In this document: positions 1 through 39,195 of the stretch, in pieces | Layout of the letters: each line of letters opens with the position of its first letter | Position numbering within the stretch: position 1 is the stretch's first letter | Source of the DNA: Escherichia phage JEP4 | Sequence record: MT740315.1 | Length of the DNA: 39,195 bases | Reading direction: 5' to 3' (one strand) | Translations under genes and position numbers: made by a program | Notes under the pieces: model-generated | Databases searched by the model: none | Told to the model about the DNA's origin: nothing | Seen by the model: only the letters and a program-made list of their open reading frames with translations

Positions 1-489
1 ATGGCAGCACCAAAGGGCAACCGATTTTGGGAGGCCCGCAGTAGTCATGGGCGAAACCCTAAATTCGAATCGCCTGAGGCGCTGTGGGCTGCTTGTTGTG
101 AATACTTCGAGTGGGTGGAAACTAACCCGCTATGGGAGATGAAGGCGTTCTCGTATCAGGGTGAAGTGATACAAGAGCCTATCGCCAAGATGCGAGCGAT
201 GACCATCACCGGACTCACTCTGTTCATTGATGTGACGCTTGAAACATGGCGCACATATCGCCTGCGAGAAGATTTATCTGAAGTCGTTACGCGAGCAGAG
301 CAGGTCATCTACGACCAGAAATTCTCTGGCGCAGCCGCTGACCTTCTCAACGCTAATATCATCGCCCGTGATTTGGGCCTCAAAGAGCAGTCGCAAGTTG
401 AAGACGTGACACCTGATAAGGGAGATCGCGATAAGCGACGCTCTCGTATCAAGGAGCTATTCAACCGTGGAACTGGACGCGATTCTTGA
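1..489 (+). CDS. Terminase small subunit (P22 gp3-like)
   Basis: 162-aa ORF directly upstream of and overlapping the large terminase ORF; size and position match P22-family TerS. Confidence 0.8.
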
Positions 490-1963
490 TAACCTGAGCG
501 ACGAAGAGCAAATCGAATTGCTCGAGCTACTCGAAGAAGAAGAAAACTACCGGAACACACACCTGCTATATGAATTTACGCCATACAGCAAACAGCGTGA
601 GTTCATCGACGCCGGGCATGACTATCCAGAGCGATGTTTTATGGCTGGTAACCAGCTTGGTAAGTCATTTACTGGTGCTGCTGAAGTCGCGTTTCACCTT
701 ACCGGGCGTTATCCGGGCACAAAAGGCTATCCTGCTGATGGTAAATATGGCGGTGAGTGGAAAGGTAAGCGTTTCTATGAGCCTGTTGTCTTCTGGATTG
801 GCGGCGAGACAAACGAGACGGTAACCAAAACGACTCAACGCATCCTGTGCGGTCGTATCGAAGAGAATGACGAGCCAGGCTACGGTTCCATACCGAAAGA
901 AGACATCATTAGCTGGAAGAAGTCTCCTTTCTTTCCGAACCTTGTTGATCACCTTCTGGTTAAGCATCACACGGCTGATGGCGTTGAAGATGGCATTTCA
1001 ATCTGCTACTTCAAACCATACTCGCAAGGCCGTGCTCGCTGGCAGGGTGACACAATCCACGGCGTGTGGTTTGACGAAGAGCCACCATACAGCATTTATG
1101 GCGAAGGTCTTACCCGTACCAACAAATACGGGCAATTCTCAATTCTGACGTTTACCCCGCTGATGGGGATGTCTGACGTTGTTACCAAGTTCCTGAAGAA
1201 TCCCAGCAAGTCGCAGAAAGTGGTCAACATGACCATCTATGACGCTGAGCACTATACCGACGAGCAGAAAGAGCAAATCATCGCATCCTATCCTGAGCAT
1301 GAGAGAGAGGCGCGTACTCGCGGTATTCCTACGATGGGTAGTGGTCGAATCTTCCAGATACCGGAAGAGACGATTAAGTGTCAGCCGTTCGAGTGTCCTG
1401 ATCACTTCTACGTCATCAATGCAATGGACTTCGGATGGGATCACCCACAGGCACATATCCAGCTTTGGTGGGATAAAGACGAGGACGTGATTTATCTTTC
1501 TCGCGTCTGGAAGGCCAAACAGAAGAAGGCGACAGAGGCATGGAGTGCTGTTAAAGCATGGAGCAAAAACACCCCTACGGCTTGGCCTCATGACGGGCAT
1601 CAGCACGAAAAGGGAGGCGGCGCTCAGCTCAAGGAACAATACGCCGACGCTGGGTTCGACATGTTGCCAGATCATGCAACATGGCCTGATGGAGGTAATG
1701 CGGTCGAACCCGGGATAGCAGAGATACGCGACATGATGCTCGACGGTCGTTTCAAGGTATTTAACACCTGCGAGCCATTCTTTGAAGAGTTTCGCCTGTA
1801 TCACCGCGATGAGAACGGGAAGATCGTCAAGCTAAATGACGACATCCTTTCTGCTGTTCGCTATGGCTACATGATGAGGCGTTTTGCAATACAGATGCGA
1901 GACATCAAAGATCCTAAAGAGATTGATTACTCAAGCTACAACATACCTTGCGGAGTTGGATGA
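467..1963 (+). CDS. Terminase large subunit (P22 gp2-like)
   Basis: 498 aa; overlaps TerS end and portal start; size and synteny typical of P22-type TerL. Confidence 0.85.
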
Positions 1964-4164
1964 TGGCTGATGATAGAAAGATGACTGACTGGCATCGCAA
2001 GGTGCTGTGCAACTTTGATAATGCCTGGTCAGCAACGCAGGATATGCGAGAGCAGATTATTGAGGCTCAACGTTTCGTCCGGGTGTCCGGCGCACAGTGG
2101 GAAGGCAGCACAAACGCTGGTTACTCATTTGATGAAGGCAGGTTTGAGCATTATCCGCGCTTTGAACTGAATAAGATTGCCCGTGAATGTGATCGCATCA
2201 TTGGCGAGTATCGACAGAATCGCATCAGCGTTAAATTCAGGCCGAAGGATGACAAGGCATCGGAAGCGTTAGCCGAAAAGATGAACGGCAAATTCCGCGC
2301 TGACTATCAGGAAACATCCGGTGGCGAAGCGTGTGATAACGCATTTGATGATGCTGTAACGGGCGGATTCGGTTGTTTCCGCATGTGTGCCGATTACGAA
2401 GATGAAATGGACCCAAGTAACGAGCAGCGACGCATCAGCCTTCTTCCTGTTTACGACCCAGCGACATGCGTTTTCTTCGATCAGGACAGCAAGCAATATG
2501 ACCGCTCTGATGCTATGTGGGCTATGGAAATGTTCTCCATGACGCCTAAAGCGTTCGAGGCTGAATACCCTGATTCCATCGCGGCAAGCCTTTCTCGTGA
2601 TGACACTGGCACTCAATATGACTGGTCAACGCCAGATGCCATCTATGTTGGTCGCTACTACGAAGTTCGCATAGAGAAGGTGAAGCTCACGGCATGGCGC
2701 AACCCTGTTAGCGGAGAAACGGCAATTTATGATGAAGAGCAAATCAAAGATATTGTCGACGAGCTGACCGATGGTGCATTCGAACTGATTGGCGAGCGAA
2801 CGGTGAAGAAGCGCCGCGTTTATTGCGGTCTTCTGTCTGGCGCTGAATGGCTGGAAGAACCGAAGCGTATTCCGGGCGAACATATTCCTCTCATCCCGGT
2901 ATATGGGCGTCGATCATTTGTTGATAATCAGGAGCGAATCGAAGGTCACGCAGCAAAAGCGATGGATGCACAGCGTCTTGAGAACCTGATGGTTTCCATG
3001 ATTGCAGATAACGCTACTCAGGCTGGCGGTGATGGCATTCCTGTAGTTGATGTTGACATGATTCCTGGTCCTCTCGCCACTCATTGGGCGGAGCGCAACA
3101 AAAAGCGCCCGGCGTTCCTGCCGATGGTCAGTCTGAAAAACAAAAACGGAGATATTACTGCGCAGGCTCAGGTCAGCAGTTATACACCTCCGACACAAAT
3201 GCCTCCTGCTCTTGCCGGGCTATTGCAGTACACCGGAACGGCTATTCAGCAAATTACAGGTGCGTCGCAGCTTGAGAATATGCCGAGCAACGTCGCTACC
3301 GATACCGTTGATAGCATCTTTAACCGGATGGACACGCAGTCCTATATCTACATGGACAACATGGCTAAATCCATGCGCCGCGCTGGCGTCGTGTGGCTTT
3401 CTATGGCGCGTGAAGTCTATGGCAGCGATACGCCAATGCGCATCGTTAATGAGGACGGCAGCGATGACGTGGCGCTGATGACTGGTGAAGTGGTTGACCG
3501 TCAGACAGGGCAGGTTATCGCGCTTAACGACCTTTCGCAGGGTAACTATGAAGTGACTGTCGATGTCGGTCAGTCGTTCGCTACTCGCCGTGATGCAACG
3601 GTTAAGTCGTTACTTTCCATGCTGGCACTTATCCCACCAGGAACGCCGAAGCACGACCTTGTATCGTCGATGATTCTCGACAATATGGACGGCGAAGGGA
3701 TGGACGACCTGAAAGAATACAACCGCAATCAGTTGCTTCTGTCTGGAGTTATCAAGCCGAGAACGCCTGAAGAACAGCAGATGGTTGAACAGGCGAAACA
3801 ACAACAGGCCAGTCAGCCAGATCCGGCTATGGTTGCAGCGCAAGGTCAGCTTCTTGCTGGTCAGGCTGAATTGCAGAAAGCGCAGAACGAACAGGCAGCC
3901 ATTCAGGTTAAAGCATTCCAGGCACAGACTGATGCTCAGGTTGCAGCGGCAAATGTTGTGAAAATCCTCGCATCTGCCGATAGCCAGCAGAAATCTGATA
4001 TCCGCGAGGCTCTGAAACTGCTCGGACAGTTCCAGCAACAGCAAGGAGATAATGCCCGTGCTGATGCAGAGCTTGTCCTGAAAAGTCAGGCACAGGGCCA
4101 TGCGCAGCGCATGGACATCAGCAGCATCCTGCAAAAATCAACTCAGCAACAACCACAGCAGTAA
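1960..4164 (+). CDS. Portal protein (P22 gp1-like)
   Basis: About 735 aa; C-terminal Q/A-rich helical barrel region (PEEQQMVEQAKQQQASQPDPAMVAAQGQLLAGQAELQKAQNEQ) as in P22 portal; ATGA overlap with TerL stop; ORF-track start 1948 is probably an upstream extension. Confidence 0.9.
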   Translation: MMADDRKMTDWHRKVLCNFDNAWSATQDMREQIIEAQRFVRVSGAQWEGSTNAGYSFDEGRFEHYPRFELNKIARECDRIIGEYRQNRISVKFRPKDDKASEALAEKMNGKFRADYQETSGGEACDNAFDDAVTGGFGCFRMCADYEDEMDPSNEQRRISLLPVYDPATCVFFDQDSKQYDRSDAMWAMEMFSMTPKAFEAEYPDSIAASLSRDDTGTQYDWSTPDAIYVGRYYEVRIEKVKLTAWRNPVSGETAIYDEEQIKDIVDELTDGAFELIGERTVKKRRVYCGLLSGAEWLEEPKRIPGEHIPLIPVYGRRSFVDNQERIEGHAAKAMDAQRLENLMVSMIADNATQAGGDGIPVVDVDMIPGPLATHWAERNKKRPAFLPMVSLKNKNGDITAQAQVSSYTPPTQMPPALAGLLQYTGTAIQQITGASQLENMPSNVATDTVDSIFNRMDTQSYIYMDNMAKSMRRAGVVWLSMAREVYGSDTPMRIVNEDGSDDVALMTGEVVDRQTGQVIALNDLSQGNYEVTVDVGQSFATRRDATVKSLLSMLALIPPGTPKHDLVSSMILDNMDGEGMDDLKEYNRNQLLLSGVIKPRTPEEQQMVEQAKQQQASQPDPAMVAAQGQLLAGQAELQKAQNEQAAIQVKAFQAQTDAQVAAANVVKILASADSQQKSDIREALKLLGQFQQQQGDNARADAELVLKSQAQGHAQRMDISSILQKSTQQQPQQ

Positions 4165-4254
4165 TTAACCCATAACGTGCAATGGCTGTCTTTATGAGGC
4201 CTGGCACCCTATTGCCTTCCGATGGGCTGAACATCGAGTAAACAGGGGTAACAA

Positions 4255-5148
4255 ATGGACCAGATGGCAGAAAACACACCAGAAGTTGAAATCGAAACCG
4301 ACGCGTCAGAGCAGATTCCTGATGATGTCGAACTGGCTGAAGAAGTCGAAACAGAAGATGGCAGTGAGTCCTCTGGCAATGATGCAGAGGAAGCTACTGA
4401 AACTGATGACGACGAATCAGAACAGGAATTCTACTTTGGTGACGAAAAGCTGGATTCGCCAACCAGCGAAGATAGCGCAGAGCATGGACTGGTAAAACAC
4501 CTGCGCAAGACGATTAAAGAGAAAGACCGCGAGCTGAAAGAGCTGATGCGTCAGTCTCAGAAACCCGTCGAGCAGCAGCCGGTAATCACTCAACCACCGC
4601 GAATGCCAAAACTGGATGATGAGGACATCGGTTTCGATGAAGAAATCTATCAGCAACGCATGGCTAAGTGGGCAGAGGATAACGGAAAGTACCAGCAACA
4701 GGAGATGGCTCGCAAGCAGAAGGAGCAGGAGCTTCAGGCTACCTATCAAGAGCGATTATCCAAATATCAGCAACGTGTTAAGGCTCTCAAGGTTCCTGGC
4801 TATCAGGAAGCAGAACAGGCCGTACTCGAGGAAATCCCCATCGAGACACAAAACGCGATCCTGTTTGAGTCAGAGAAGCCGGAAATCGTTGTTCTGGCGC
4901 TCGGTCGCAACGCTGAACTGCGCAAGCAACTGGCAGAAGCTACCAACCCCGTAGCAATTGGTCGTCTGCTGGAACGTATCGAATCGAAGGCCAGAATCAT
5001 GCCAAAAGCAAAAACCACGGCAGCCACAACCCCGACAGTTAAGGGGAGCAACGGCGCAGTAATCAACAACCTCGACAAATTGAAAGCCAAGGCGCTGGAA
5101 ACTGGTGACTGGACGCCGTATTTCGCCGCTAAAAAGGCAAAAAAATAA
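4255..5148 (+). CDS. Scaffolding protein (P22 gp8-like)
   Basis: 297 aa, highly acidic N-terminus, coiled-coil-like charged repeats, located between portal and coat. Confidence 0.7.
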   Translation: MDQMAENTPEVEIETDASEQIPDDVELAEEVETEDGSESSGNDAEEATETDDDESEQEFYFGDEKLDSPTSEDSAEHGLVKHLRKTIKEKDRELKELMRQSQKPVEQQPVITQPPRMPKLDDEDIGFDEEIYQQRMAKWAEDNGKYQQQEMARKQKEQELQATYQERLSKYQQRVKALKVPGYQEAEQAVLEEIPIETQNAILFESEKPEIVVLALGRNAELRKQLAEATNPVAIGRLLERIESKARIMPKAKTTAATTPTVKGSNGAVINNLDKLKAKALETGDWTPYFAAKKAKK

Positions 5149-5166
5149 CCTATCGGAGCATTAAGC

Positions 5167-6420
5167 ATGGCTAACCAATTAGCAAAAGACCTTGAAATCA
5201 TGTTCGAAAACTACGTTGAAGGCTTTGAGGCCGCCTGCGTAGTTTCCCGTAACGCTAAAAAATTCCGTCCCGGTGATACAGCAATGCAGCGAGCAGGTGA
5301 TGTTCTGTATCGTCCGCAGCATTACCACATGAACATTGAGGAAGGCCTAGACCTCAGCGGCAAAACGCCAACAGCACTGGTTCAGCGCCTTGTTCCTTCT
5401 GTGTTCAAGGAGCCGAAAAACATTCTGTACACTCTGGATGCGCGTGAAATGCGTGACCCGGAACATAAAACTGAAGCTGGTCGCGCCGCAGGTATGCGCC
5501 TTGCTGCACAGATTGACTCTGACCTGATTTCCATGGTCACGCAGCGTGCTACTAACGTGATCACAATGGCTGACTCAACCACTGGTTCACAGGGCCGTGA
5601 TTTGTGGAACTGTGCGGCAGGTATTGATGCCACCATGACGTCGATTGGTGTACCACAGGGTATCAACCGCCGCTCTTTCTGGAACCCCTTCAACTACAAA
5701 GACCTTGCTGGCGAGCTTGGCCACCGTGCCTATGCTCAGGGCGCAACCCTGACAGCATACGAAAAAGCGCAGATCCCTCCGGTTGCGTCCTTCGATAGCT
5801 ACAAGACGGATATTTCTGGTCGTGTTCCGAAGGGTACAGCAACTTCCCTGACGCTGGCGGCTGAACCTGCGCACAAGGTTGAAGCGAAAGATGCCAACGA
5901 TATGCCAGTGGATAACCGACAGGGGACTATTACGGTATCTGCATCTGGGTTGCAGGTTGGCGATGCGTTCACCATTGCTGGCGTGAATTCTGTACACCAG
6001 ATCACCAAAGACACCACCGGGCAGCCGCAGGTATTCCGCGTTCTGGCAGTAAGCGGAACGACAGTAACTATCTCCCCGAAAATTCTGCCGCCTGACAACT
6101 CGGATGTCGCCAGCCGTCCATATGCAAACGTTGATGCTAATGCGGCAAGTAGCGCAGCAATCACCATTCTCAACAAAAATGCCGCACCGGCTAACCTGTT
6201 CTGGGCTGATGGTTCTGTTGAACTGATGTACGGCAAACTGGCGTTCCCAACTGGTCAGGGTCCACAGGTAATGACAGCAACCACCGAGCAGGGCGCTACG
6301 CTGATCATGTCTTACGCCTTCGACCACATCAAAGGCGTAACCACTGCTCGTTTCACCACTCTGTACGGTTGCTCTGTACTTGTTCCTGAATATACGGGCA
6401 TCGTTATTGCCGGGCAGTAA
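5167..6420 (+). CDS. Major capsid (coat) protein
   Basis: 417 aa ORF immediately after scaffold, followed by a strong terminator; size and position of P22-family coat; differs from my recollection of P22 gp5 itself. Confidence 0.85.
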   Translation: MANQLAKDLEIMFENYVEGFEAACVVSRNAKKFRPGDTAMQRAGDVLYRPQHYHMNIEEGLDLSGKTPTALVQRLVPSVFKEPKNILYTLDAREMRDPEHKTEAGRAAGMRLAAQIDSDLISMVTQRATNVITMADSTTGSQGRDLWNCAAGIDATMTSIGVPQGINRRSFWNPFNYKDLAGELGHRAYAQGATLTAYEKAQIPPVASFDSYKTDISGRVPKGTATSLTLAAEPAHKVEAKDANDMPVDNRQGTITVSASGLQVGDAFTIAGVNSVHQITKDTTGQPQVFRVLAVSGTTVTISPKILPPDNSDVASRPYANVDANAASSAAITILNKNAAPANLFWADGSVELMYGKLAFPTGQGPQVMTATTEQGATLIMSYAFDHIKGVTTARFTTLYGCSVLVPEYTGIVIAGQ

Positions 6421-6461: not shown

Positions 6462-6650
6462 ATGGCACGAACAATGCTCTATAAGCCTGGCAACATGATC
6501 ACCTGTGGTCAGTTTGCTGTCGATTACATCATTGTTGATGACGAAGAAGTTAAATCTCACCTGAAAAAAGGTTGGGTAAAAACTCCTGAAGAAACCGCAA
6601 CGAAGCAAAAAGTGGCTAAGGCGGAAGAAGATGGCGAAAACGAAGGGTGA
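6462..6650 (+). CDS. Hypothetical small protein (62 aa) between coat and head-completion gene
   Basis: ATG at 6462 preceded by GGGAGAAG Shine-Dalgarno; ORF-track start 6423 lies inside the terminator hairpin. Confidence 0.5.
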   Translation: MARTMLYKPGNMITCGQFAVDYIIVDDEEVKSHLKKGWVKTPEETATKQKVAKAEEDGENEG

Positions 6651-7092
6651 TCTCGTTCTAAAGGCTTTACGAAAAGCCGGGCTGTATTCCAATGCCACGT
6701 TGACAGATGCCGACCCTCAGGCAATTGAAGATGCCATTAATGACCTCGAAGACATGATGGCAGCATGGCAGGCGAAAGGTATCGAGCTTGGATATCAGTT
6801 TGCTGATACAGAAAACGGCATCATGCCGTTACCTGACGATGATTCAGGTATCCCTGCATGGGCAAATGATGGCGTCGCTTTGAAACTCGCTGTGCAAGTG
6901 TGCATGGATAACGTCATTCAGCCGTCGGATGCTCTCCTTACCGCTGCTGACAGCGCATATCAGACAATCTGCATCGCTTTAACCAAAATACCACCACTTG
7001 AGCGGCGAAATGACATGCCTCGCGGTAGTGGTAACAAAAGCGCGTTTACGTGGAATCGGTTTTACATCGAGAAAGATGAACCGAGTACGTGA
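6631..7092 (+). CDS. Head completion / portal-binding protein (P22 gp4-like)
   Basis: 153 aa; assigned by conserved P22 gene order 5-4-10-26-14-7-20-16. Confidence 0.6.
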   Translation: MAKTKGDLVLKALRKAGLYSNATLTDADPQAIEDAINDLEDMMAAWQAKGIELGYQFADTENGIMPLPDDDSGIPAWANDGVALKLAVQVCMDNVIQPSDALLTAADSAYQTICIALTKIPPLERRNDMPRGSGNKSAFTWNRFYIEKDEPST

Positions 7093-7101
7093 GGTGAATA
7101 A

Positions 7102-8520
7102 ATGCCGATTCAGCAACTTCCGCTTATGAAAGGTGTCGGCAAAGACTTTCGAAACGCCGACTATATCGACTATCTGCCAGTGAATATGCTGGCTACACCC
7201 AAAGAAATACTCAACAGCAGCGGATATCTTCGCTCATTCCCGGGCATTGCCAAACGTTCTGATGTGAACGGCGTATCGCGCGGAGTCGAGTACAACATGG
7301 CGCAGAATGCTGTCTATCGTGTGTGTGGCGGCAAGCTCTACAAAGGCGAAAGCGAAGTCGGTGATGTTGCCGGAAGTGGTCGCGTATCAATGGCACACGG
7401 TAGGACATCACAGGCAGTAGGTGTTAATGGTCAACTGGTCGAGTATCGCTATGATGGCACGGTTAAAACCGTCTCAAACTGGCCTGCAGACAGCGGATTT
7501 ACGCAGTATGAGTTAGGTTCAGTCCGCGACATTACACGCTTACGTGGGCGTTATGCGTGGTCAAAAGACGGTACTGATTCATGGTTTATCACTGACCTTG
7601 AAGACGAATCACATCCTGACCGATACAGCGCACAATACCGCGCAGAATCACAGCCTGACGGCATCATCGGCATAGGTACATGGCGAGACTTCATCGTCTG
7701 CTTTGGTTCATCGACAATTGAATATTTCTCCCTGACTGGTGCAACCACCGTTGGTGCCGCTTTGTATGTCGCACAGCCATCGCTGATGGTGCAGAAAGGT
7801 ATTGCCGGGACTTACTGCAAAACGCCATTCGCTGATTCTTATGCGTTCATCAGCAATCCGGCAACAGGTGCGCCGTCTGTATACATCATCGGCTCCGGTC
7901 AGGTGTCACCAATCGCCAGCGCGAGCATTGAGAAAATTCTCCGCTCCTACACTGCTGATGAACTGGCTGATGGTGTGATGGAGTCTCTGCGATTTGATGC
8001 GCATGAGCTGCTGATTATCCACCTTCCGCGCCATGTTCTGGTGTACGACGCATCTTCAAGCGCCAATGGTCCGCAATGGTGTGTACTGAAAACAGGCCTG
8101 TATGACGATGTGTACCGCGCTATCGACTTCATTTACGAAGGCAATCAGATAACGTGCGGCGATAAGCTGGAGTCCGTGACCGGGAAATTGCAATTCGATA
8201 TCAGCAGCCAGTACGACAAGCAACAGGAACACCTGCTGTTTACTCCGTTGTTCAAAGCGGATAACGCCAGAGTTTTCGACCTTGAAGTTGAATCGTCAAC
8301 TGGAGTTGCGCAGTATGCTGACCGCCTTTTTCTCTCTGCAACCACTGACGGCATCAATTACGGGCGTGAGCAGATGATTGAGCAGAATGAACCGTTCGTT
8401 TACGACAAACGCGTTTTGTGGAAGCGGGTCGGACGCATCAGGAAAAATGTCGGCTTCAAATTGCGTGTTATCACTAAGTCACCTGTCACTCTGTCTGGCT
8501 GCCAGATAAGGATTGAGTAA
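7102..8520 (+). CDS. Tail hub protein (P22 gp10-like)
   Basis: 472 aa, same length as P22 gp10; synteny. Confidence 0.65.
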
Positions 8521-9473: not shown

Positions 9474-9928
9474 TGATTCAGTTCAAACCAACGCGAAACA
9501 TCGACCTGATCGAAGCAGTAGGAAATCACCCTGACATTATCGCTGGTAGCAACAACGGTGATGGATACGACTACAAGCCTGAATGCCGTTACTTTGAGGT
9601 TAACGTGCACGGTCAGTTTGGCGGCATTGTTTACTATCAGGAGATTCAGCCGCTGACCTTTGATTGCCACGCCATGTACCTGCCAGAGATTCGCGGATTC
9701 AGCAAGGAAATAGGGCTGGCGTTCTGGCGATACATTTTGACCAACACCACCGTTCAGTGCGTCACATCGTTCGCTGCGCGCAAATTCCGCCACGGGCAGA
9801 TGTACTGCGCAATGATTGGCCTTAATCGTGTAGGAACCATCAAGAAATACTTCAAAGGCGTGGATGACGTAACTTTTTACAGCGCCACACGCGAAGAACT
9901 AATCGACTTCCTGAATCACGGGAGATAG
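9470..9928 (+). CDS. gp14-like head/ejection-associated protein
   Basis: 152 aa; assigned only by position between needle and ejection genes. Confidence 0.5.
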
Positions 9929-9930
9929 CC

Positions 9931-28714: not shown

Positions 28715-28744
28715 TTAAGTGTTCTTTAATTTCGGAGCGAGTCT

Positions 28745-29357: not shown

Positions 29358-29630
29358 ATGCGAAACAAAGGCTTTAATCCACCTGATACACACAAAGAAG
29401 CTAAGCGTTTGCGCTTCCTTCGTTCCATTGATGAAAGAACTCAAATCTCTTTTGTGAAAGTTGCCAGAACTGAGCTTCTGAAGGCTGAGGCGAGGGCGTT
29501 GCTCCCGTCTCTACCAAAAGAGGAGGGATATACGTTCATTCCAAACGCATTTCTGGAAAAGCTTCTCAAAGAAGACATATCCGTAAGTCAGTTTAACGAT
29601 GTTCTTAAGGTCTTTCGTCAAGGCAGGTAG
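29358..29630 (+). CDS. Hypothetical protein (90 aa) between c1 and replication initiator
   Basis: ATG 29358 with GAGG SD; MRNKGFNPPDTHKEAKRLRFLRSIDERTQISF. Confidence 0.5.
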   Translation: MRNKGFNPPDTHKEAKRLRFLRSIDERTQISFVKVARTELLKAEARALLPSLPKEEGYTFIPNAFLEKLLKEDISVSQFNDVLKVFRQGR

Positions 29631-29632
29631 TT

Positions 29633-30580: not shown

Positions 30581-31953
30581 GACAGGATATCGAAGCGAGC
30601 GTTATCGGTGGCCTGCTGATTGGTGGATTAACACCAACCGCCAGCGACGTTCTGGCAACGCTGGAGCCGGAAGCGTTTTCAATTCCGCTCTACCGGAAAG
30701 CCTTCGAGGTTATCCGCAAGCAGGCGCGAAACAGAAACCTAATCGACGCGCTGATGGTTGCCGAGGCGTGCGGAGAGGAGCATTTCACGTCAATCCTGAT
30801 GACCAGCAAGAACTGCCCGAGTGCCGCAAACCTGAAGGGATATGCCGGAATGGTCGCGGATAACTATCACCGTCGTCTGGTGCTGGAAATCATGGATGAA
30901 ATGCGTGAACCAATTCAGAGCGGAACTATCGACGCATCGAGTCAGGCGATGGATGAACTTGTAAAGCGTCTTTCAGCCATCAGAAAGCCCCGTGACGAGG
31001 TAAAACCTGTACGGTTAGGGGAAATCATTACTGACTACACTGACACGCTTGACAGGCGTCTGAGGAACGGAGAAGAGTCAGATACCCTGAAGACCGGAAT
31101 CGAAGAACTTGACGCCATCACCGGAGGGATGAACGCAGAAGACCTGGTGATAATCGCTGCTCGTCCTGGTATGGGGAAAACCGAACTGGCTCTGAAGATT
31201 GCCGAAGGCGTTGCAAGCCGCGTTATTCCTGGTTCTGACGTCCGGCGCGGGGTATTGATTTTCTCGATGGAAATGAGCGCATTGCAGATTGCAGAGCGAA
31301 GCATTGCCAACGCCGGGAGGATGTCGGTTAGCGTACTGCGAAATCCTGCATCGATGGATGACGAGGGCTGGGCACGTGTTGCTAACGGCATGAGTCAGCT
31401 TGCAGATTTGGATGTATGGGTAGTCGATGCTTCGCGGTTATCGGTCGAAGAAATACGCTCAATCGCAGAACGGCATAAGCAGGAAAATCCAAACCTGTCA
31501 CTCATCATGGTGGATTATCTTGGCCTGATTGAGAAGCCGAAAGCAGATCGCAACGACCTCGCAATTGCTCACATCTCCGGAAGCCTGAAGGCGATGGCGA
31601 AAGACCTGAAAACACCGGTTATCTCCCTGAGTCAGCTTTCGCGCGATGTTGAGAAGCGACCAAACAAACGCCCGACAAACGCAGATTTGCGTGATTCAGG
31701 AAGCATTGAACAGGACGCAGACTCAATCATCATGCTCTATCGGGAAGCGGTATATGACGAGAACAGTAGCGCCGCGCCATTTGCTGAAATCATCGTGACG
31801 AAAAACCGTTTTGGCTCACTTGGTACGGTTTACCAGCGGTTCTGCAACGGACACTTTGTTGCATGTGACCAGGATGAAGCCAGACAGATTTGCACAGCAT
31901 CAAATGCACCTGCTGCGCGTGGCAGACGATATGCACAAGGGGCGGACGTATGA
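30577..31953 (+). CDS. Replicative DNA helicase, DnaB-like (P22 gene 12 position)
   Basis: 458 aa; Walker [13 protein letters not shown], Walker B-like IMVDYLGL, typical DnaB C-terminal domain motifs. Confidence 0.9.
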
Positions 31954-32026: not shown

Positions 32027-32467
32027 ATGAAAAAACTAACCTTTGAAATTCGATCTCCAGCACATCAGCAAAACGCTATTCACGCAGTACAGCAAATCCT
32101 TCCAGACCCAACCAAACCAATCGTAGTAACCATTCAGGAACGCAACCGCAGCTTAGACCAAAACCGAAAGCTTTGGGCTTGCTTAGGTGACGTCTCTCGT
32201 CAGGTTGAATGGCATGGTCGCTGGCTGGATGCAGAAAGCTGGAAGTGTGTGTTTACCGCAGCATTAAAGCAGCAGGATGTTGTTCCTAACCTTGCCGGGA
32301 ATGGCTTTGTGGTAATAGGCCAGTCAACCAGCAGGATGCGTGTAAGCGAATTTGCGGAGCTATTAGAGCTTATACAGGCATTCGGTACAGAGCGTGGCGT
32401 TAAGTGGTCAGACGAAGCGCGACTGGCTCTCGAATGGAAAGCGCGATGGGGAGACAGGGCGGCATGA
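32027..32467 (+). CDS. ninB: NinB (Orf recombination mediator)
   Basis: [55 protein letters not shown] matches lambda NinB as recalled; GGAGAGGGAAG SD. Confidence 0.9.
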
Positions 32468-32640
32468 GACGACAGCGACGAAGTATCACCGACATCATCT
32501 GCGAAAACTGCAAATACCTTCCAACGAAACGCTCCAGAAATAAACGCAAGCCAATCCCAAAAGAATCTGACGTAAAAACCTTCAACTACACGGCTCACCT
32601 GTGGGATATCCGGTGGCTAAGACATCGTGCGAGGAAATGA
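32464..32640 (+). CDS. ninD: NinD
   Basis: [58 protein letters not shown], lambda NinD-like; overlaps ninB stop. Confidence 0.8.
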
Positions 32641-33026
32641 CAATGGATTATTCACAGTTAAGTGATTTTGAAATTAACGTGGCGGTATTCGAAGCCATTC
32701 ATAACGGATCACCGGATTACAAAGAAGGTGAGAATGGCGATATGGTGTTTGTCTCATTTGAGGGAGACATTGTAAACGGAGACGCAGTTGAAGTAGAAGT
32801 TGAGCGCGGTTCCTTTAACCCATGCGCAAACCCAGCAGACGCATGGCCGATTATCACTGAAAACAACATCAGCATAATTTTAGACAATCCCTCAATGCCG
32901 TGCGCTACAGACAACGCAAGGGACTTGTTTGATGATGCCGGACCGAATGTTGGTGTCGCATATGACAATCCACTCCGTGCCGCCATGATTGTCTTTCTCA
33001 TGATGCAGGACGCCAATAATGCTTAG
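32637..33026 (+). CDS. Hypothetical nin-region protein (about 129 aa)
   Basis: ORF in the ninE slot but about twice the length of lambda NinE; ATGA overlap with ninD. Confidence 0.55.
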
Positions 33027-33195
33027 CCCATCCCAATCCCTTCAATACCAGAAAGAAAGCGTCGAGCGGGCTTTAACGTGCGCTAACTGCGGTCAGAAGC
33101 TGCATGTGCTGGAAGTTCACGTGTGTGAGCACTGCTGTGCAGAACTGATGAGCGATCCGAATAGCTCAATGTACGAGGAAGAAGACGATGAATGA
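33019..33195 (+). CDS. ninF: NinF (58 aa; below ORF-track cutoff)
   Basis: Read directly: [58 protein letters not shown], matching lambda NinF as recalled. Confidence 0.8.
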   Translation: MLSPSQSLQYQKESVERALTCANCGQKLHVLEVHVCEHCCAELMSDPNSSMYEEEDDE

Positions 33196-33913
33196 GTTAA
33201 TAAATGGCAACGCCATCAAAATGACAAGCATTGAAATCGCTGAGTTGGTAGAAAGCCGCCATAGCAATGTAAAAGTATCCATAGATAGATTGGTGAAACG
33301 TGGCGTTATCAAGCCTCCTGCATTGCAGCACACTAACATAATCAATGATTTAGGTGTTATTACCGGGAAGCGTTATTTCTACGTCTTCGAAGGCGAACAA
33401 GGTAAGCGCGACAGCATTATTGTCGTCGCTCAGTTGTCGCCGGAATTCACCGCTCGTCTTGTTGACCGTTGGCGAGAGCTTGAAGAAGCTGCGGTTAATA
33501 TCCCCAAAACGCTACCAGAAGCGTTGCGCCTTGCTGCTGATCTTGCTGAGCAGAAAATGCAACTGGAAAACCAGCTCGCAATTGCCGCACCTAAAGTTGA
33601 GTTTGCCGATCGCGTTGGCGAGGCCAGCGGAATTTTGATTGGAAACTTTGCAAAGGTTGTTGGAATTGGTCCAAACAAACTGTTTGCGTGGATGCGCGAT
33701 CACAAAATCCTTATTGCTTCAGGTTCCCGGCGCAATGTGCCAATGCAGGAATATATGGATCGCGGCTATTTCACAGTGAAAGAAACAGCGGTCAACACAA
33801 ATCACGGAATACAGATATCGTTCACCACAAAAATCACCGGGCGTGGTCAACAGTGGCTGACCAGAAAGCTGCTCGATAACGGAATGCTGAAAGTAACAGG
33901 GGAGGCTGCTTAA
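33188..33913 (+). CDS. Rha/ANT-type antirepressor-like regulatory protein (Roi-like) in nin region
   Basis: N-terminal Rha-like segment MTSIEIAELVESRHSNVKVSIDRLVKRG; C-terminal ANT-like segment; domain names from recalled family patterns. Confidence 0.7.
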   Translation: MNELINGNAIKMTSIEIAELVESRHSNVKVSIDRLVKRGVIKPPALQHTNIINDLGVITGKRYFYVFEGEQGKRDSIIVVAQLSPEFTARLVDRWRELEEAAVNIPKTLPEALRLAADLAEQKMQLENQLAIAAPKVEFADRVGEASGILIGNFAKVVGIGPNKLFAWMRDHKILIASGSRRNVPMQEYMDRGYFTVKETAVNTNHGIQISFTTKITGRGQQWLTRKLLDNGMLKVTGEAA

Positions 33914-34203
33914 TGGCTAACCTACGCAAAGAAGCGCGCGGCAGAGAATGCCAGGTTCGTATTTACGGCATATGCAATGGTAATCCTGAAACTACAGTTC
34001 TGGCACATTACCGGATGGCTGGAATTTGCGGAACGGGAATGAAGCCTGACGACCTGATCGGTGCATGGGCTTGTAGCGCGTGTCACGATGAAATCGACCG
34101 ACGCACCCATAACCTCGACAACAAAGACGCCAGACTTTACCACCTCGAAGGCGTGATCAGGACGCAGGCGATACTGCTGAAGGAGGGGAAGATTAAGTCA
34201 TGA
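33913..34203 (+). CDS. Cys-rich DUF1364/YbcO-like protein
   Basis: 96 aa with CQVRIYGIC...CGTG...CSACH cysteine pattern; common neighbour of rusA in lambdoid nin regions. Confidence 0.55.
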   Translation: MANLRKEARGRECQVRIYGICNGNPETTVLAHYRMAGICGTGMKPDDLIGAWACSACHDEIDRRTHNLDNKDARLYHLEGVIRTQAILLKEGKIKS

Positions 34204-34595
34204 AAACCTACCGAATAAAATTGCCGTGGCCTCCTTCAAACAACCGATATTGGCGACACTCAAGAGGGATCCACTACATCAGCGACTGGGGGAAGAGATA
34301 CCAAGAAGAAGTAATCGAATTAATCCAGCAACAACAGCTAGACATCAAAATCACACCTCGCATCAGAATAACCATCCACGCAGCACCTCCCGATAACCGC
34401 AAACGAGATTTGGACAATCTGCCAAAAGCCGTTTTTGACGCACTCACCAGTGCGGGCTTCTGGCTGGATGACGGTCAGATAGACGATATGCGCGTCATTC
34501 GCTATCAGGCGATTAAAGGCGGAATGCTTTTGTTGGTTGTGACTGAAACATGCGGCAGTTTGCCAATGATTACAGAGCTACTGGAGGCCGCATGA
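34200..34595 (+). CDS. rusA: RusA Holliday-junction resolvase
   Basis: MKTYRIKLPWPPSNNRYWRH...RKRDLDNLPKAVFDALTSAGFWLDDGQIDDMRV matches RusA motifs (PWPPS(N)NRY, DLDN, FWLDD). Confidence 0.85.
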   Translation: MKTYRIKLPWPPSNNRYWRHSRGIHYISDWGKRYQEEVIELIQQQQLDIKITPRIRITIHAAPPDNRKRDLDNLPKAVFDALTSAGFWLDDGQIDDMRVIRYQAIKGGMLLLVVTETCGSLPMITELLEAA

Positions 34596-34798
34596 CGTTC
34601 TCAGTAAAAAACATTCCAGACATGCTCGTTGAAGCATACGGAAACCAGACAGAAGTAGCACGCAGACTGAAATGTAGTCGCGGCACGGTCAGAAAATACG
34701 TTGATGATAAAGACGGGAAAATGCACGCCATCGTCAACGACGTTCTCATGGTTCATCGCGGATGGAGTGAAAGAGATGCGCTATTACGAAAGAATTGA
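34592..34798 (+). CDS. ninH: NinH
   Basis: [68 protein letters not shown], lambda NinH-like. Confidence 0.8.
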
Positions 34799-35447
34799 TG
34801 GCAGCAAATACCGGAATATTTGGGTAGTTGGCGATCTGCACGGATGCTACACGAACCTGATGAAAAAACTGGAGACGATAGGATTCGACATCAAAAAAGA
34901 CCTGCTTATCTCGGTTGGCGATTTGGTCGATCGCGGTACAGAGAACGTCGAATGCCTGGAATTAATCACATTCCCCTGGTTCAGAGCTGTACGTGGAAAC
35001 CATGAGCACATGATGATTGATGGCTTATCAGAGCGTGGAAACGTCAATCACTGGCTGCTTAATGGCGGTGTCTGGTTCTTTAATCTCGATTACGACAAAG
35101 AAATTCTGGCTAAAGCTCTTGCCCATAAAGCAGAAGAACTTCCGTTAATCATCGAACTGGTGAGCAAAGGTAAAAAATATGTCATCTGCCACGCCGATTA
35201 TCCTTGTGACGAATACGAATTTGGAAAGCCAGTTGATCATCAGCAGGTAATCTGGAACCGCGAACGAATCAGCAACTCACAAGACGGGATCGTGAAAGAA
35301 ATTAAAGGCGCGGACACGTTTATCTTTGGTCATACGCCAGCAGTGAAACCACTTAAATTTGCCAACCAAATGTATATCGATACCGGCGCAGTGTTCTGCG
35401 GAAACCTCACATTGATTCAGGTACAGGGAGAAGGCGCGTGGGCATAA
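34776..35447 (+). CDS. Ser/Thr protein phosphatase (lambda NinI/PPase-type)
   Basis: Metallophosphatase motifs GDLHGC, GDLVDRG, GNHE; matches lambda phosphatase as recalled. Confidence 0.9.
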
Positions 35448-35926
35448 GAGAACTAAACCTCACCAAAGAACAGCATGAGTGGCTGAATGGCTGGCTTGAA
35501 CTGTGGGGCGCATGGGTTTATTCAGGTCGTCTGGAAAAGCGCATGAGCAGCGTAATAGCGAAGTTCATGGAGAGCGTAGAGCCGGGAAGAGTTATGACAA
35601 GGCCAATGTGCAATGATGATGATGGAATGTTGATTTCTCAGGTCGTCGATTCCGTCATGTGCATTGACAAGAAAGCCTTTGGCATCCTCCTCAGCTACTA
35701 CGCCCACGGTTCTTCCAAGCACGCCATTGCATCTTACTATCATCGCGTCGCAAGACCTCGCAAGATGTTATGCCGGGGCGGCGGGCGCATTCAAAAACCA
35801 TCGCTCGCAACCTGTCGTCGGGAAGTTGACGAAATCCTCAATGCCTCGTTGTTTATGATTTACCCGGTTCTGGATAGTGCGTTTAAAAACCGGAAACGTG
35901 TAGAGAAAATTAAACATGTAGCGTAG
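35438..35926 (+). CDS. Late-gene antiterminator Q (non-lambda, phage-82/QuuD-like family)
   Basis: GTG start with GGGAGAAGG SD; WLELWGAWV and [10 protein letters not shown] resemble recalled QuuD (WGAW, RPQCCDDDAM); sits directly upstream of late promoter region and lysis genes. Confidence 0.65.
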
Positions 35927-36453: not shown

Positions 36454-36777
36454 ATGAAGATGACAGAAAAACATGACCTGTTAGCCGCCATTCTCGCGGC
36501 AAAGGAACAAGGCATCGGGGCAATCCTTGCGTTTGCAATGGCGTACCTTCGCGGCAGATATAATGGCGGTGCGTTTACAAAAACAGTAATCGACGCAACG
36601 ATGTGCGCCATTATCGCCTGGTTCATTCGTGACCTTCTCGACTTCGCCGGACTAAGTAGCAATCTCGCTTATATAACGAGCGTGTTCATCGGCTACATCG
36701 GTACTGACTCGATTGGTTCGCTTATCAAACGCTTCGCTGCTAAAAAAGCCGGAGTAGAAGATGGTGGAAATCAATAA
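36454..36777 (+). CDS. S: Holin, lambda S-type (dual start Met1/Met3)
   Basis: [67 protein letters not shown] matches lambda S as recalled. Confidence 0.95.
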
Positions 36778-37237
36778 TCAACGTAAGGCGTTCCTCGATA
36801 TGCTGGCGTGGTCAGAGGGAACTGATAACGGACATCAGAAAACCAGAAATCATGGTTATGACGTCATTGTTGGCGGAGAGCTATTTACTGATTACTCCGA
36901 TCACCCTCGCAAGCTTGTCACGCTAAACCTCAAACTCAAATCAACAGCAGCCGGTCGCTACCAGCTTCTTTCACGCTGGTGGGATGCCTACCGCAAGCAA
37001 CTTGGCCTGAAAGATTTTTCTCCAGAAAGCCAGGATGCTGTAGCGCTGCAGCAGATTAAAGAGCGTGGCGCTTTACCGATGATTGACCGCGGTGATATTC
37101 GTCAGGCAATTGACCGTTGCAGCAATATCTGGGCTTCACTGCCGGGCGCTGGTTATGGTCAGTTCGAGCATAAGGCTGACAGCCTGATTGCAAAATTCAA
37201 AGAAGCAGGCGGAACGGTCAGAGAGATTGAGGTATGA
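36761..37237 (+). CDS. R: Endolysin, lambda R-type lytic transglycosylase
   Basis: [24 protein letters not shown]...; matches lambda R as recalled. Confidence 0.95.
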
Positions 37238-37701
37238 GCAGAGTAACCGCGATTATCTCCGCTCTGATTATCTGCATCATCGTCTGCCTGTCATGGGCTG
37301 TTAATCATTACCGTGATAACGCCATCGCCTATAAAGAACAGCGCGATAACAAGGCCAGTGAACTGGAGAAGGCGAACGCCACCATTACTGACATGCAGCA
37401 GCGCCAGCGTGATGCTGATGCGCTCGATGCTAAATACACGAAGGAGTTAGCTGATGCGAAAGCTGAAAATGATGCTCTTCGGCGCAAGCTTGATAATGGT
37501 GGTCGGGTGTTCGTCAAAGGAAAATGCCCTATGCCATCCTCAGCCGAAACCTCCAGCGCCTCCGGCATGGGCAATGATGCCACCGTCGAACTCTCTCCAG
37601 TTGCTGGACGAAACGTTCTCGGTATCCGGGACGGAATCATCAGCGACCAAACAGCACTGAGAACGCTTCAGGAATACATCAGGACGCAATGCCTTCGATG
37701 A
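37234..37701 (+). CDS. Rz: Spanin inner-membrane subunit Rz (divergent C-terminal half)
   Basis: N-terminus [31 protein letters not shown] as lambda Rz; ATGA overlap with R; contains Rz1 in the +1 frame. Confidence 0.8.
37454..37660 (+). CDS. Rz1: Spanin outer-membrane lipoprotein Rz1 (embedded in Rz)
   Basis: [21 protein letters not shown] lipobox; proline-rich [16 protein letters not shown]. Confidence 0.75.
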
Positions 37702-38046: not shown

Positions 38047-38565
38047 ATGAATCATCAATTGGCTAATCTCGATTTCCGGGACATGGTGGTTGTTTCTGGT
38101 GATCGCGTGATCACAACCTCCCGCAAGGTAGCAGCTTACTTCGACAAGCAGCATCACCACATCATTCAGAAAATCGAAAAGCTAGACTGTTCGGATGAAT
38201 TTCTAACCAGCAACTTTTCGCGGGTTACCTATGAACACAAGGGTAATCAGTATGTTGAATATGAAATTTCCAAAGACGGCGCGATGTACATCATCATGTC
38301 GTTTACCGGCAAAAAAGCTGCCGCCATCAAAGAGGCGTTTATCAAAGCATTTAATTGGATGCGTGACAGGCTGATGGAGATGGCTCACTCATACCAAAGA
38401 GAGCACAACGAGTTAATGCTGGAGTTCATGAAGGAAAAGGATGTTGCCAGTATGTCAGGACGCTTGCTGAACCGCTGGGGCAGGATCAAAAAACCGCAAC
38501 TCATAGCAAGAATCAAAAGGCTTGAGCAGCAGGCGCAAATATCGATCCCCGGACTGCCAAAGTGA
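38047..38565 (+). CDS. rha: Phage regulatory protein Rha
   Basis: Start MNHQLANLDFRDMVVVSGDRVITTSRKVAAYFDKQHHHIIQKIEKL (Rha N-domain pattern); position after lysis genes as in P22; ORF-track start 37978 is an extension. Confidence 0.7.
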   Translation: MNHQLANLDFRDMVVVSGDRVITTSRKVAAYFDKQHHHIIQKIEKLDCSDEFLTSNFSRVTYEHKGNQYVEYEISKDGAMYIIMSFTGKKAAAIKEAFIKAFNWMRDRLMEMAHSYQREHNELMLEFMKEKDVASMSGRLLNRWGRIKKPQLIARIKRLEQQAQISIPGLPK

Positions 38566-38917
38566 CCATTCCAAAGCCCATCTACGGGTGGGCTTGATAA
38601 TGAAACCGTGATTTACATCCCCACAATCCGGGTATGTAAAAGATAGTTCAGGCGAGAACAGATTTAACTAAATCTGTGCACCACCAGTTACGGCAGTACC
38701 ACGAAGCAACCCAAGCCAGTAAGTGGGGAAATAACACTGGCAGCCACTGAAAGATGAACCTCCAGCCTTATGGCAAAAAAGATTCTTTGTGGTGGCGGAC
38801 TGATGGAAAGACATCGGTTATTGCAGAGGCCATTCAATGAGTGGTCTCGACAATGGCTTATACCCTACACGGGATAACTTAACTGACATCCCTTTTAACG
38901 GATAAACGGAGCCAACA

Positions 38918-39160
38918 ATGGCAGAGATTATTCCCATGACTGAAGAACAGAAATTCCAGTTAGAGATTTATAAACTGGTCATGAACCAGAATGCAGCCGC
39001 AGAAGAAGCATTTCAATTCATTGGCACTGACGAACTGAAGCTTGAGCTATTCAAAATTCACTTCCAGTCAGGCGGCGCTAATTCAGATATCACGACCCGT
39101 ACTATCGAAGCGGTGCGTAAATCGAAGGAAGCGTTAGACCTGTTCACTACCGGAGCATGA
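38918..39160 (+). CDS. Hypothetical protein (80 aa) upstream of small terminase
   Basis: ORF with GGAG SD; last gene before the permutation point. Confidence 0.4.
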   Translation: MAEIIPMTEEQKFQLEIYKLVMNQNAAAEEAFQFIGTDELKLELFKIHFQSGGANSDITTRTIEAVRKSKEALDLFTTGA

Positions 39161-39195
39161 TGCTCAACCTGAAATAACAACTAAGTGAGATGAAT

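Follow-up and report, generated by a model that had tools for sequence, protein, structure and literature searches.

The genome of Escherichia phage JEP4, a mosaic of P22-like virion genes with lambda-type and other lambdoid modules

Escherichia phage JEP4 (sequence record MT740315.1) was analysed over its whole length of 39,195 nucleotides (nt), referred to below as the window. With a probability of about 0.9, the window represents the complete genome of a temperate P22-like lambdoid podophage of Escherichia coli, given as a circular phage-form permutation opened at the ATG of the small terminase gene (terS, gene 3; position 1). It consists of gene blocks that are common to P22, lambda, CUS-3, HK620/HK629, Sf6 and resident E. 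coli prophages. Such a composition is ordinary, textbook lambdoid mosaicism, and no new kind of element is present.

Gene content and block structure

The 62 called open reading frames (ORFs) examined were all uninterrupted (62/62, plus one alternative start of the portal gene), and the gene set was complete for a P22-like virion, lysogeny, replication, late control and lysis. The virion genes follow the P22-type order (terS, terL, portal, scaffold, coat, gp4, gp10, gp26, gp14, gp7, gp20, gp16, tailspike) and are collinear with those of P22. Virion domains found above the Pfam cutoff were GP3_package, P22_portal, P22_CoatProtein, P22_Tail-4, Phage_stabilise, Inj_translocase and Head_binding. 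The regulatory layout is lambdoid, with int-xis, recombination genes, N, repressor, cro, cII, replication genes, nin, Q and lysis genes in canonical order and orientation (Table 1). No tRNA was found by a scan of the window. A search of the whole window against Rfam returned the lambda cIII thermoregulator alone above threshold, and no sar, oop or other family. PADLOC, applied to ten accessory ORFs, reported no defence system and only generic helix-turn-helix (HTH) matches to the CI-like repressor.

Nine references were fetched for comparison: lambda (NC_001416), P22 (NC_002371), CUS-3 (CP000711), Gally, HZ41, E212, HK629, and the prophages of FORC_082 and E100341. By BLASTN, P22 aligned over 13,154 nt (34% of the window) at 70-98% identity, and lambda over 5,749 nt only (15%) at 94-98%. 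The blocks of the two phages were non-overlapping and sharp-edged. Lambda blocks cover 20036-21864 (attP, int, xis, lambdap35 homologue) and 26427-26901 (the first part of kil, cIII, and the ea10-ral spacer, from which ea10 has been deleted). Further ones cover 29022-29331 (cII), 31950-32467 (ninB), 32471-32637 (ninE), 33053-33190 (ninF), 34584-35440 (ninH, ninI) and 36204-37481 (S, R, half of Rz). P22 blocks were found in the virion module at 1-1920 (genes 3 and 2) and at 7101-8755 and 9473-12619 (genes 10, 26N, 14, 7, 20 and 16), in the early region at 27831-28951 (OL, c2, OR, cro) and 30206-33190 (C-terminus of gene 18, gene 12, ninB/E/X/F), in parts of the lysis and rha regions, and at 38690-39195.

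Every lambda-block edge was examined by forced global alignment of 100 nt inside and 100 nt outside the block. Identity was 90-99% inside and 51-62% outside, the value for random 100-mers being 53.9 +/- 3.6%. All 18 edges thus showed a fall to random identity within 100 nt, and the switches are sharp. A first-pass annotation, made from the sequence without database searches, had proposed a module-level mosaic of P22 and lambda parts; this interpretation was supported, and the individual assignments on which it was built were confirmed in part, as detailed in the next section.

In a per-base tiling, one or more of the nine references matched 97.3% of the window bases identically. No uniform similarity to a single reference was seen: identical bases, relative to window length, amounted to 50.6% for CUS-3 (the best single reference), 42.7% for Gally, 39.2% for E212, 36.3% for HZ41, 28.0% for P22 and 14.1% for lambda. 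Best-donor segmentation with this panel resulted in 46 segments; donor-type blocks are given at the end of Table 1. Two stretches not covered by the panel have relatives of 97-99% identity (rusA-ninH-ninI in the Stx2c phage Stx2_5044 and ninH-ninI-Q in Sf6; orf75-N in ECP1 and mEp213), so that, together with the panel coverage, the whole window is accounted for by the known lambdoid pool. Block boundaries coincide with gene borders at cII, ninB, ninE and ninH-ninI, and lie inside genes or at domain borders in the tailspike gene (17774-17801), kil (26427), Rz (37481) and terL (near 1400). No record covering at least 80% of either window half was found in the INPHARED phage set and 5,426 complete E. 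coli genomes. Using tblastn against the window, no match was obtained for NinD of lambda or P22, nor for NinC, NinG, Ren, Ea10, Ral, Gam, lambda N, lambda Q, gp23, SieA, SieB or Bor.

Table 1. Features of the JEP4 genome and donor-type blocks (positions in the window; aa, amino acids or amino acid identity)
Feature	Position	Strand	Remarks
Small terminase, P22 gene 3 type	1..489	+	99.4% aa to P22 gp3; Pfam GP3_package
Large terminase, P22 gene 2 type	467..1963	+	92% aa to P22 gp2; Pfam Terminase_6N/6C
CUS-3-type procapsid module	1960..6420	+	portal 1960-4164, scaffold 4255-5148, coat 5167-6420
Head-completion proteins gp4, gp10	6631..8520	+	gp4 6631-7092, gp10 7102-8520; 41%, 94% aa to P22; Pfam P22_Tail-4, Phage_stabilise
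Tail needle gp26, Sf6-type knob	8520..9473	+	N-terminal 159 aa 55% to P22 gp26; Pfam Phage_tail_NK at residues 136-317
Ejection proteins gp14, gp7, gp20, gp16	9473..13866	+	93, 92, 80, 54% aa to P22
62-aa hydrophobic protein	13884..14072	-	P22 sieA position; phrog_21338; strong AAGGAGG upstream
immI-like island	14133..17062	mixed	CI-like repressor to Mnt homologue
CI-like repressor	14133-14774	-	Pfam HTH_3 and Peptidase_S24
57-aa ORF	14874-15047	+	weak match to ParD_like ribbon-helix-helix family, below cutoff (19.8 bits vs 23)
Ant	15121-15759	+	Ant and second antirepressor: Pfam Bro-N and P22_AR_C; phrog_245, phrog_1726
Second antirepressor	15847-16572	+	see Ant
orf73	16572-16793	+	
Mnt homologue	16808-17062	-	Pfam Arc
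Conserved boundary sequence upstream of tailspike	17146..17210	+	94.8% to P22 16157-16214
Tailspike	17482..19539	+	P22-type head-binding domain (Pfam Head_binding; 68% aa to P22) and unrelated receptor-binding domain
99-aa hydrophobic protein	19536..19835	+	lysogenic-conversion position between tailspike and attP; phrog_1443; no Pfam or PADLOC match
Lambda-type attP	20086..20357		core 20227-20241
int	20315-21385	-	99.2% aa to lambda
xis	21363-21581	-	98.6% aa to lambda
lambdap35 homologue	21621-21788	-	96.4% aa to lambda
'ea' region and abc2	21947..24934	-	DUF4752, EaA-like/DUF551, orf78, Ead/Ea22-like, EaE-like, DUF2737, abc2; Pfam, PHROG
abc2	24638-24934	-	61% aa to P22
HK620/HK629-type recombination module	24958..26419	-	SSB 24958-25545, Sak4 25542-26222, hkaM-like ORF 26231-26419
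Chimeric kil	26416-26529	-	37 aa
cIII	26522-26662	-	46 aa
Thermoregulator RNA	26617-26675	-	
orf83, orf75, N-like antiterminator	26885..27699	-	N-like 27427-27699; phrog_2471, phrog_5305, phrog_271; Pfam N_peptide
P22-specificity immC	27880..28930		OL; c2 28014-28664 (-); OR 28665-28744; cro 28745-28930 (+)
Lambda-type cII	29039..29335	+	95% aa to lambda CII vs 55% to P22 C1; 95.8% nt over 29022-29331
orf90, O-like initiator, DnaB-type helicase	29358..31953	+	initiator 29633-30580 (Pfam Phage_rep_O), helicase 30577-31953
nin region	32027..35447	+	ninB, ninE, ninX-like, ninF, roi, ybcO, rusA (131 aa), ninH, ninI phosphatase
Late antiterminator Q	35438..35926	+	Sf6 gene 59/CUS-3/HK629 type; phrog_943; Pfam Phage_antitermQ
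Lysis cassette S, R, Rz	36454..37701	+	embedded candidate Rz1 ORF; lambda block 36204-37481, 94.4% nt
rha, orf80	38047..39160	+	rha 38047-38565, orf80 38918-39160; upstream of terS across the window join
Block	1-2150		P22/E212-type terminase
Block	1925-8749		CUS-3 type
Block	8750-9470		needle knob, Gally type
Block	10234-17836		E100341 type
Block	17482-24977		FORC_082 type
Block	24958-26854		HK629 type
Block	27508-31981		CUS-3/Gally type
Block	34584-35440		ninH-ninI, lambda/Sf6 type
Block	35439-36117		Q, CUS-3/HK629 type
Block	37975-39063		Gally type

The modules and their closest relatives

The virion genes had been assigned to the P22 family as a whole. This applies to gp3, gp2, gp10, gp14, gp7, gp20, gp16 and the head-binding domain of the tailspike. 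Portal (35% aa identity to P22), coat (29%) and scaffold (no match) are of the CUS-3 type in sequence and P22 family by Pfam, and BLASTN gave no match to P22 over 1921-7100, where these three genes are located. At the nucleotide level they were 96-100% identical to CUS-3, E212 and the FORC_082 prophage. Within the coat gene, between 5801 and 6200, CUS-3 and E212 fall to 82-85% and the FORC_082 prophage holds 96-100%, indicating an intragenic mosaic patch. The P22 pac site is present at 268-289 within terS (22/22 nt exact), and pac-initiated headful packaging of JEP4 would be expected. In terL, the nucleotide identity to P22 switches near 1400 from 92-98% to 72-74%; identity to E212 is 98-100%. 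The needle stretch 8750-9470 was matched in the panel by Gally only (94-98%). A further junction lies inside gene 20 near 11150-11235, with CUS-3 similarity stopping at 11235.

The boundary sequence upstream of the tailspike gene ends in what is left of a P22-type gene 9 start (ATGACAGAT, at 17198), which opens a 21-codon ORF only. The counterpart stretch of CUS-3 falls under its annotated 'bsq1; boundary sequence'; a search of the open literature on the 'boundary sequences' of CUS-3 returned nothing. About 280 nt of AT-rich DNA separate the gene 9 remnant from the true tailspike start at 17482. An in-frame extension (17389-17481) was rejected, since homology does not set in before 17482, which corresponds to the start that PGAP assigned to the homologues in E100341 and FORC_082. 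A product initiated at the upstream ATG (17389) would begin with MNRRLFFKTIASLSAVIPFSS..., a sequence similar to a twin-arginine signal peptide; it is probably untranslated. Homologues in the PDB reach tailspike residues 1-160 only, and the receptor domain (approximately 160-685) is without homologue among solved structures; phage HZ41 and the FORC_082 prophage carry it with 100% identity. The GC content is 38.5% at the tailspike gene (17482-19539) and 50% in the virion module. The exact 61-mer spanning the tailspike domain junction was absent from the IMG/VR viral contigs and the GTDB representative genomes, so the recombinant is missing from these two collections.

Downstream of gene 16, 34 nt (14070-14103) share 97% identity with the promoter region and gene start of sieA in P22; SieA itself is absent. 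The two hydrophobic proteins of 62 aa and 99 aa (phrog_21338 and phrog_1443) occupy classical moron or lysogenic-conversion positions.

The immI-like island was 99.98% identical at the nucleotide level to the E100341 prophage, and such a region was not found in any phage record searched. The best homologue of its CI-like repressor in phage records reached 41% aa identity at most; the module is common in E. coli prophages. The repressor gene is divergent from an operon comprising the small ribbon-helix-helix-like ORF and the two antirepressor genes. Its S24 nucleophile is lost (GDSM to GEAM, serine to alanine) and an Ala-Gly cleavage site is lacking, with the lysine kept (FKQV); judged by these residues, the repressor is probably unable to self-cleave and unresponsive to RecA. 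The divergent promoter region (14775-14873) contains a sigma-70 match at 14796-14824 (TTGACT, 17 nt, AATAAT). A palindrome (ACTCATACTGAGT) overlaps the -35 element and spacer of this promoter and is followed by more TGAGT half-sites, all of them candidate operators; no LexA box was seen by eye in the promoter region. Compared with immI of P22, the island has no Arc or sar homologue, and its Ant matches at 31% over 62 aa only. The Mnt homologue lies convergent at the far end, and the divergent repressor is instead of the CI-like HTH plus S24 type. The island is a functional analogue of P22 immI and not a member of it. Mnt and Rha, which had been said to follow P22, turned out to be distant homologues only (45% and 43% aa identity). 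Two small ORFs on the minus strand, of 54 aa (17208-17372) and 95 aa (35960-36247), had no family match and were not accepted as genes.

The attP core (GCTTTTTTATACTAA) matches lambda in 15 of 15 positions and the P' arm in 41 of 41; the Int sites of the P arm match in 17/20 and 18/20. The stretch from attP through int and xis to the lambdap35 homologue was 96.6% identical to lambda over 20036-21864 and 100% identical to the FORC_082 prophage. The ea region was 100% identical to FORC_082 as far as approximately 24400, and most of its genes are without a lambda or P22 protein match. In Gally, a related but diverged int of similar size lies beside a near-identical xis.

SSB, Sak4 and the hkaM-like ORF were 97-100% identical to HK629 at the nucleotide level. 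Sak4 was assigned to phrog_2872 (E=3.9e-108) and SSB to phrog_743; the two genes adjoin with a 4-nt overlap, and abc2 lies alongside. Sak4 of HK620 anneals single strands together with its SSB (PMC5928155). The near-lambda character postulated for int, xis, attP and cIII was confirmed, CIII being 98% identical (aa) and shortened to 46 aa vs 54. Kil agrees with lambda in residues 1-34 only; from the junction at 26427 its C-terminus is of the HK629 type. The kil/cIII stretch 26427-26720 was 95% identical to lambda, and Rfam Lambda_thermo matched the cIII thermosensor RNA with 88.5 bits. In HK629, the same DNA is annotated as a 79-aa 'Kil' ORF, with no cIII. The orf83-orf75-N region was 98% identical (nt) to ECP1 and mEp213, with the N-like protein only 36% identical (aa) to P22 gp24.

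For the c2-cro-c1 immunity region, assignment to P22 was correct for C2 (92% aa) and Cro (95%) and had to be revised for 'c1', which is a lambda-type cII. The immC region was 99-100% identical at the nucleotide level to CUS-3 and Gally. OR agrees with P22 in 77 of 80 nt, OL is similar with several substitutions, and C2 residues 21-42 ('QAALGKMVGVSNVAISQWERSE') are identical to those of P22; JEP4 would thus be predicted to have P22-type immunity and to be homoimmune with P22. The helicase is 90% identical (aa) to P22 gp12; for the initiator, similarity to P22 gp18 (53%) is confined to the C-terminal half. The region from immC through cII to the replication genes (27508-31981) was 98.4% identical (nt) to CUS-3; the same value applied to the initiator-helicase part with CUS-3 and Gally.

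A nin region with ninB, ninD, ninF and ninH near-identical to lambda had been proposed. NinB (99% aa) and NinH (98.5%) are indeed of this kind; ninD is absent, as are ninC and ninG (tblastn), and the gene following ninB is ninE. NinE and NinF are both 98% identical to P22, with 95% and 88%, respectively, to lambda, so that both are at least as near to P22. Near-identity to lambda was borne out for the NinI phosphatase (95% aa), S (98%) and R (97%); Rz (61%) contains the junction at 37481, and the embedded candidate Rz1 ORF is 47% identical. The rusA-ninH-ninI stretch was 98.8% identical to the Stx2c phage Stx2_5044, and ninH-ninI-Q 97.9% identical to Sf6. The 131-aa RusA variant (34200-34595, plus strand) lies beside the lambda-type ninH-ninI genes; RusA of CUS-3, Gally and HK629 has 120 aa. 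The exact 131-aa protein was indexed in 804 assembly-collection blocks and, among the four matches listed, occurred beside lambda-type, HK97-type and other virion modules. The same nin and lysis blocks were likewise seen beside lambda-type, HK97-type and other virion modules in other lambdoid prophages. Near the end of the window, Rha was 98-100% identical at the nucleotide level to Gally, and Orf80 98.8% identical (aa) to P22.

Sak4 recombination, Q, the C-terminal tailspike domain and most of the immI-like island had been set apart as related to neither phage, and none of them has a lambda or P22 protein match. The same result was obtained for scaffold, SSB, Roi, YbcO and RusA; Q was specifically without a match to lambda Q or P22 gp23.

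CUS-3, a K1-specific P22-like prophage of E. coli RS218, has portal, scaffold and coat at 96-99% to JEP4 and also has in common Roi, YbcO, the Q type, S, R and the boundary sequence upstream of the tailspike gene. It differs in the terminase pair, gp16, immI, integrase and att site, in a needle without the Sf6-type knob, in an endosialidase tailspike, in Erf at the place of Sak4, and in the lack of a NinI phosphatase. With P22, JEP4 has in common the gene order, the exact pac site, gp3 (99%) and gp2, gp10, gp14 and gp7 (92-94%), whereas the int/xis and attP core of P22, gtrABC, sieA, sieB, erf/arf/abc1, arc/ant/sar, c1, gene 23 (Q) and the gene 19 lysozyme are replaced or absent. Lambda agrees at 94-98% (nt) in attP-int-xis, cIII, the kil start, cII, ninB/E/F/H/I, S and R, but its siphovirus virion, cos packaging, Red/Gam, N, CI/Cro/rex, O/P, ninC/D/G, Q and bor are absent from JEP4. 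Where such blocks were compared further, closer relatives than lambda were found: att-int-xis is nearer to the FORC_082 prophage, kil/cIII to HK629, cII to CUS-3 and Gally, and ninH-ninI to Sf6 and the Stx2c phage. HK629 has SSB, Sak4, the hkaM-like ORF, kil and cIII in common with JEP4 (97-100% nt) and likewise pairs a lambda-type int with P22-type C2/Cro and a lambda-type cII; it is, however, a lambda-like siphovirus, and its replication genes, most of its ea region and its virion genes are unlike those of JEP4.

The integrated counterpart and recent exchange

Since P arm, core and P' arm are contiguous, with attP unsplit, the window is in the circular phage permutation. Its end joined to its start forms one continuous alignment in E212, HZ41 and P22, and 37715-39195 followed by 1-19473 were 100.000% identical to one contig stretch of GCA_050445125.1; no host DNA was present at the window ends. 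Other P22-like records also begin at the start of the small terminase gene, and the opening at terS therefore suggests a convention of such records.

The exact chimeric tailspike protein was found in the NCBI assembly GCA_050445125.1 (contig ABZAPJ010000004.1) and in Logan assemblies of SRR33624414. In GCA_050445125.1, a prophage identical to 7482-20241 stops at the core and is followed by ybhB-bioABFCD-uvrB, and the part identical to 20227-33058 begins at the core beside ybhC. The identical prophage is thus located between ybhC and ybhB-bioA with the core at both ends, which is the lambda attachment site (attB-lambda). Altogether, 37715-39195 and 1-33058 (34,539 nt, 88% of the window) had 0 mismatches to the attB-lambda prophage of GCA_050445125.1/SRR33624414. 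The attB-lambda site is likewise occupied in FORC_082, and in both prophages the homology stops exactly at the core. Int/Xis-mediated integration of JEP4 at attB-lambda would be expected from these findings. The view that the window is a phage genome and not a chromosomal prophage is upheld by the intact attP and the absence of host DNA, with the addition that an integrated copy exists; 'packaged', as had been suggested, is inseparable from excised or re-circularised, and DNA from a virion, an excised circle or a prophage re-circularised in silico would present the same sequence.

At least three P22-like/lambdoid variants were found at attB-lambda beside ybhC (GCA_050445125.1/SRR33624414, FORC_082, SRR33624419, SRR33624416). 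Their int-xis-ea arms are 100% identical (to window position 23059 or 24400), and their interiors differ.

Two blocks of the mosaic, each of about 6.5 kb, are nearly free of substitutions when set against defective prophages of other strains. Positions 11300-17800 had 1 mismatch to the E100341 prophage remnant (stool isolate, Gambia), and 17840-24400 had 0 mismatches to the defective prophage of FORC_082 (chicken meat, Korea). Mismatches to FORC_082 end at 17773, and those to E100341 begin at 17802; a crossover is therefore placed within a 28-nt stretch (17774-17801) that is identical in all three sequences, where the head-binding domain ends. On its upstream side, the head-binding domain of FORC_082 shows only 82-84% identity to JEP4. 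Diverged homology flanking an identical block has been described as the signature of homology-driven mosaics (PMC3945230), and the FORC_082 flank fits this description. The host flanks of the GCA_050445125.1 lysogen and of FORC_082 were 100% identical over 9,298 and 1,373 nt (10.7 kb). The FORC_082 attB-lambda prophage has identical arms (attL-int-xis-ea and receptor domain-attR) and a different, incomplete interior. It is 100% identical to JEP4 over most of portal to coat. Its terminase is of another type, Erf is present, and its immI is of the classical mnt-arc-ant kind; genes for repressor/cro/cII, origin binding, Q and lysis are missing from its annotation. The E100341 remnant, located next to sbcB and cut by an IS3-family element, is annotated without terminase-to-tail-needle, immunity, replication and lysis genes.

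The mosaic is thus real and partly very recent, and the phenomenon is already known. P22-like phages have been described as lambdoid phages related to one another in a mosaic manner, their early operons being highly mosaic and showing exchange with other lambdoid phages (PMC2629481), and module-level mosaicism has been detailed for lambdoid and P22-like phages (PMC2629481, PMC3945230). The blocks of JEP4 were most probably assembled by repeated recombination in a lambdoid gene pool that enterobacterial phages share with resident prophages, many of them defective. Exchanges would have occurred mostly at or near gene or domain boundaries in short conserved stretches, with selection retaining functional combinations. 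The mechanism may have been homology-driven, by relaxed homologous recombination with co-resident prophages, possibly aided by the phage's own Sak4-SSB, NinB and RusA (PMC3945230, PMC5928155); both this mechanism and the direction of each transfer are inferred.

A narrower proposal, that JEP4 is a very recent recombinant between resident prophages of one E. coli lineage, is tentative and appears rather unlikely. According to it, a double crossover would have swapped the interior of a defective attB-lambda prophage and so rescued it, with exchanges in the 28-nt tailspike island and around abc2, and Sak4, NinB and RusA of JEP4 itself may have catalysed the exchange. The reverse direction, a complete phage decaying into the FORC_082 form, is possible.

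Alternative explanations and significance

An assembly chimera, in which reads of several co-resident P22-like or lambdoid prophages or phages were joined at shared repeats, is very improbable. The host lineage does contain related prophages of the FORC_082 type and other variants at the same att site in runs of neighbouring accession numbers, and the donor switches fall in conserved stretches, where assemblers may switch too. However, the NCBI and Logan assemblies agree on the junctions with 0 mismatches over 34.5 kb; as both may be based on the same reads, this excludes a single-assembler error and not a mixture at the read level. The 28-nt crossover interval in the tailspike gene is short for bridging by an assembler. 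Moreover, the ORFs are all intact, neither loss nor duplication of an essential gene is seen, the length agrees with that of a P22-type headful, and the prophage is bounded by attL and attR at the correct core.

Slightly less probable still is that the window was cut straight from a bacterial chromosome as a prophage segment, as the identical prophage integrated at attB-lambda in GCA_050445125.1 might suggest. At the chromosomal site, ybhC borders one side of the core and ybhB the opposite side, whereas attP is contiguous at 20086-20357 of the window and host DNA is absent; the window is thus no direct excerpt and represents virion, excised-circle or re-circularised DNA. Simple descent from one phage (P22, CUS-3 or lambda) with uneven mutation rates, for which the full collinearity with P22 and some virion genes graded at 70-95% could be cited, is refuted by the block map, the panel and the edge test, in that identity leaps between >94% and random within 100 nt, replacements are non-homologous (Sak4 for Erf, another Q, another receptor domain, lambda Int for P22 Int), and separate segments are 98-100% identical to separate references.

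The reading of JEP4 as a complete temperate P22-like phage genome in circular form has to be weighed against several points. The comparison with the identical prophage spans 88% of the window, and 33059-37714 (4,656 nt) lie outside it. Viability, pac packaging, P22 homoimmunity and attB-lambda integration are predicted from the sequence and from related prophages. Neither the direction nor the order in which exchanges took place can be read from pairwise identities alone. In the style of the International Committee on Taxonomy of Viruses, a genus comprises members with at least 70% genome-wide nucleotide similarity. JEP4 stays below this value for the type phage P22 (28%) and for the best reference, CUS-3 (50.6%); NCBI nevertheless places the mosaics CUS-3, Gally, E212 and HZ41 in Lederbergvirus despite 36.3-50.6% identity to the window.

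Many P22-like prophages in other contigs pair a P22-type virion with other lambdoid early modules, and one of them carries lambda-type CI/Cro, O/P, NinG/H/I and Q. As P22-type virion modules together with lambda-type int/xis are already present in the FORC_082 prophage, and other mixtures of early modules exist, JEP4 is only a new combination inside a well-known kind. It adds another cleanly mapped example of a mosaic and no new principle. Its practical value lies in annotation, namely the map of genes and modules, the att site, the probable immunity type and corrected gene calls, and a sequenced E. coli isolate has been shown to carry the mosaic as a prophage. The near-isogenic, 'allelic' attB-lambda prophages, with arms of 0 mismatches and a crossover confined to 28 nt, could serve as a natural test case of how phage-encoded recombinases reshuffle complete and defective prophages.

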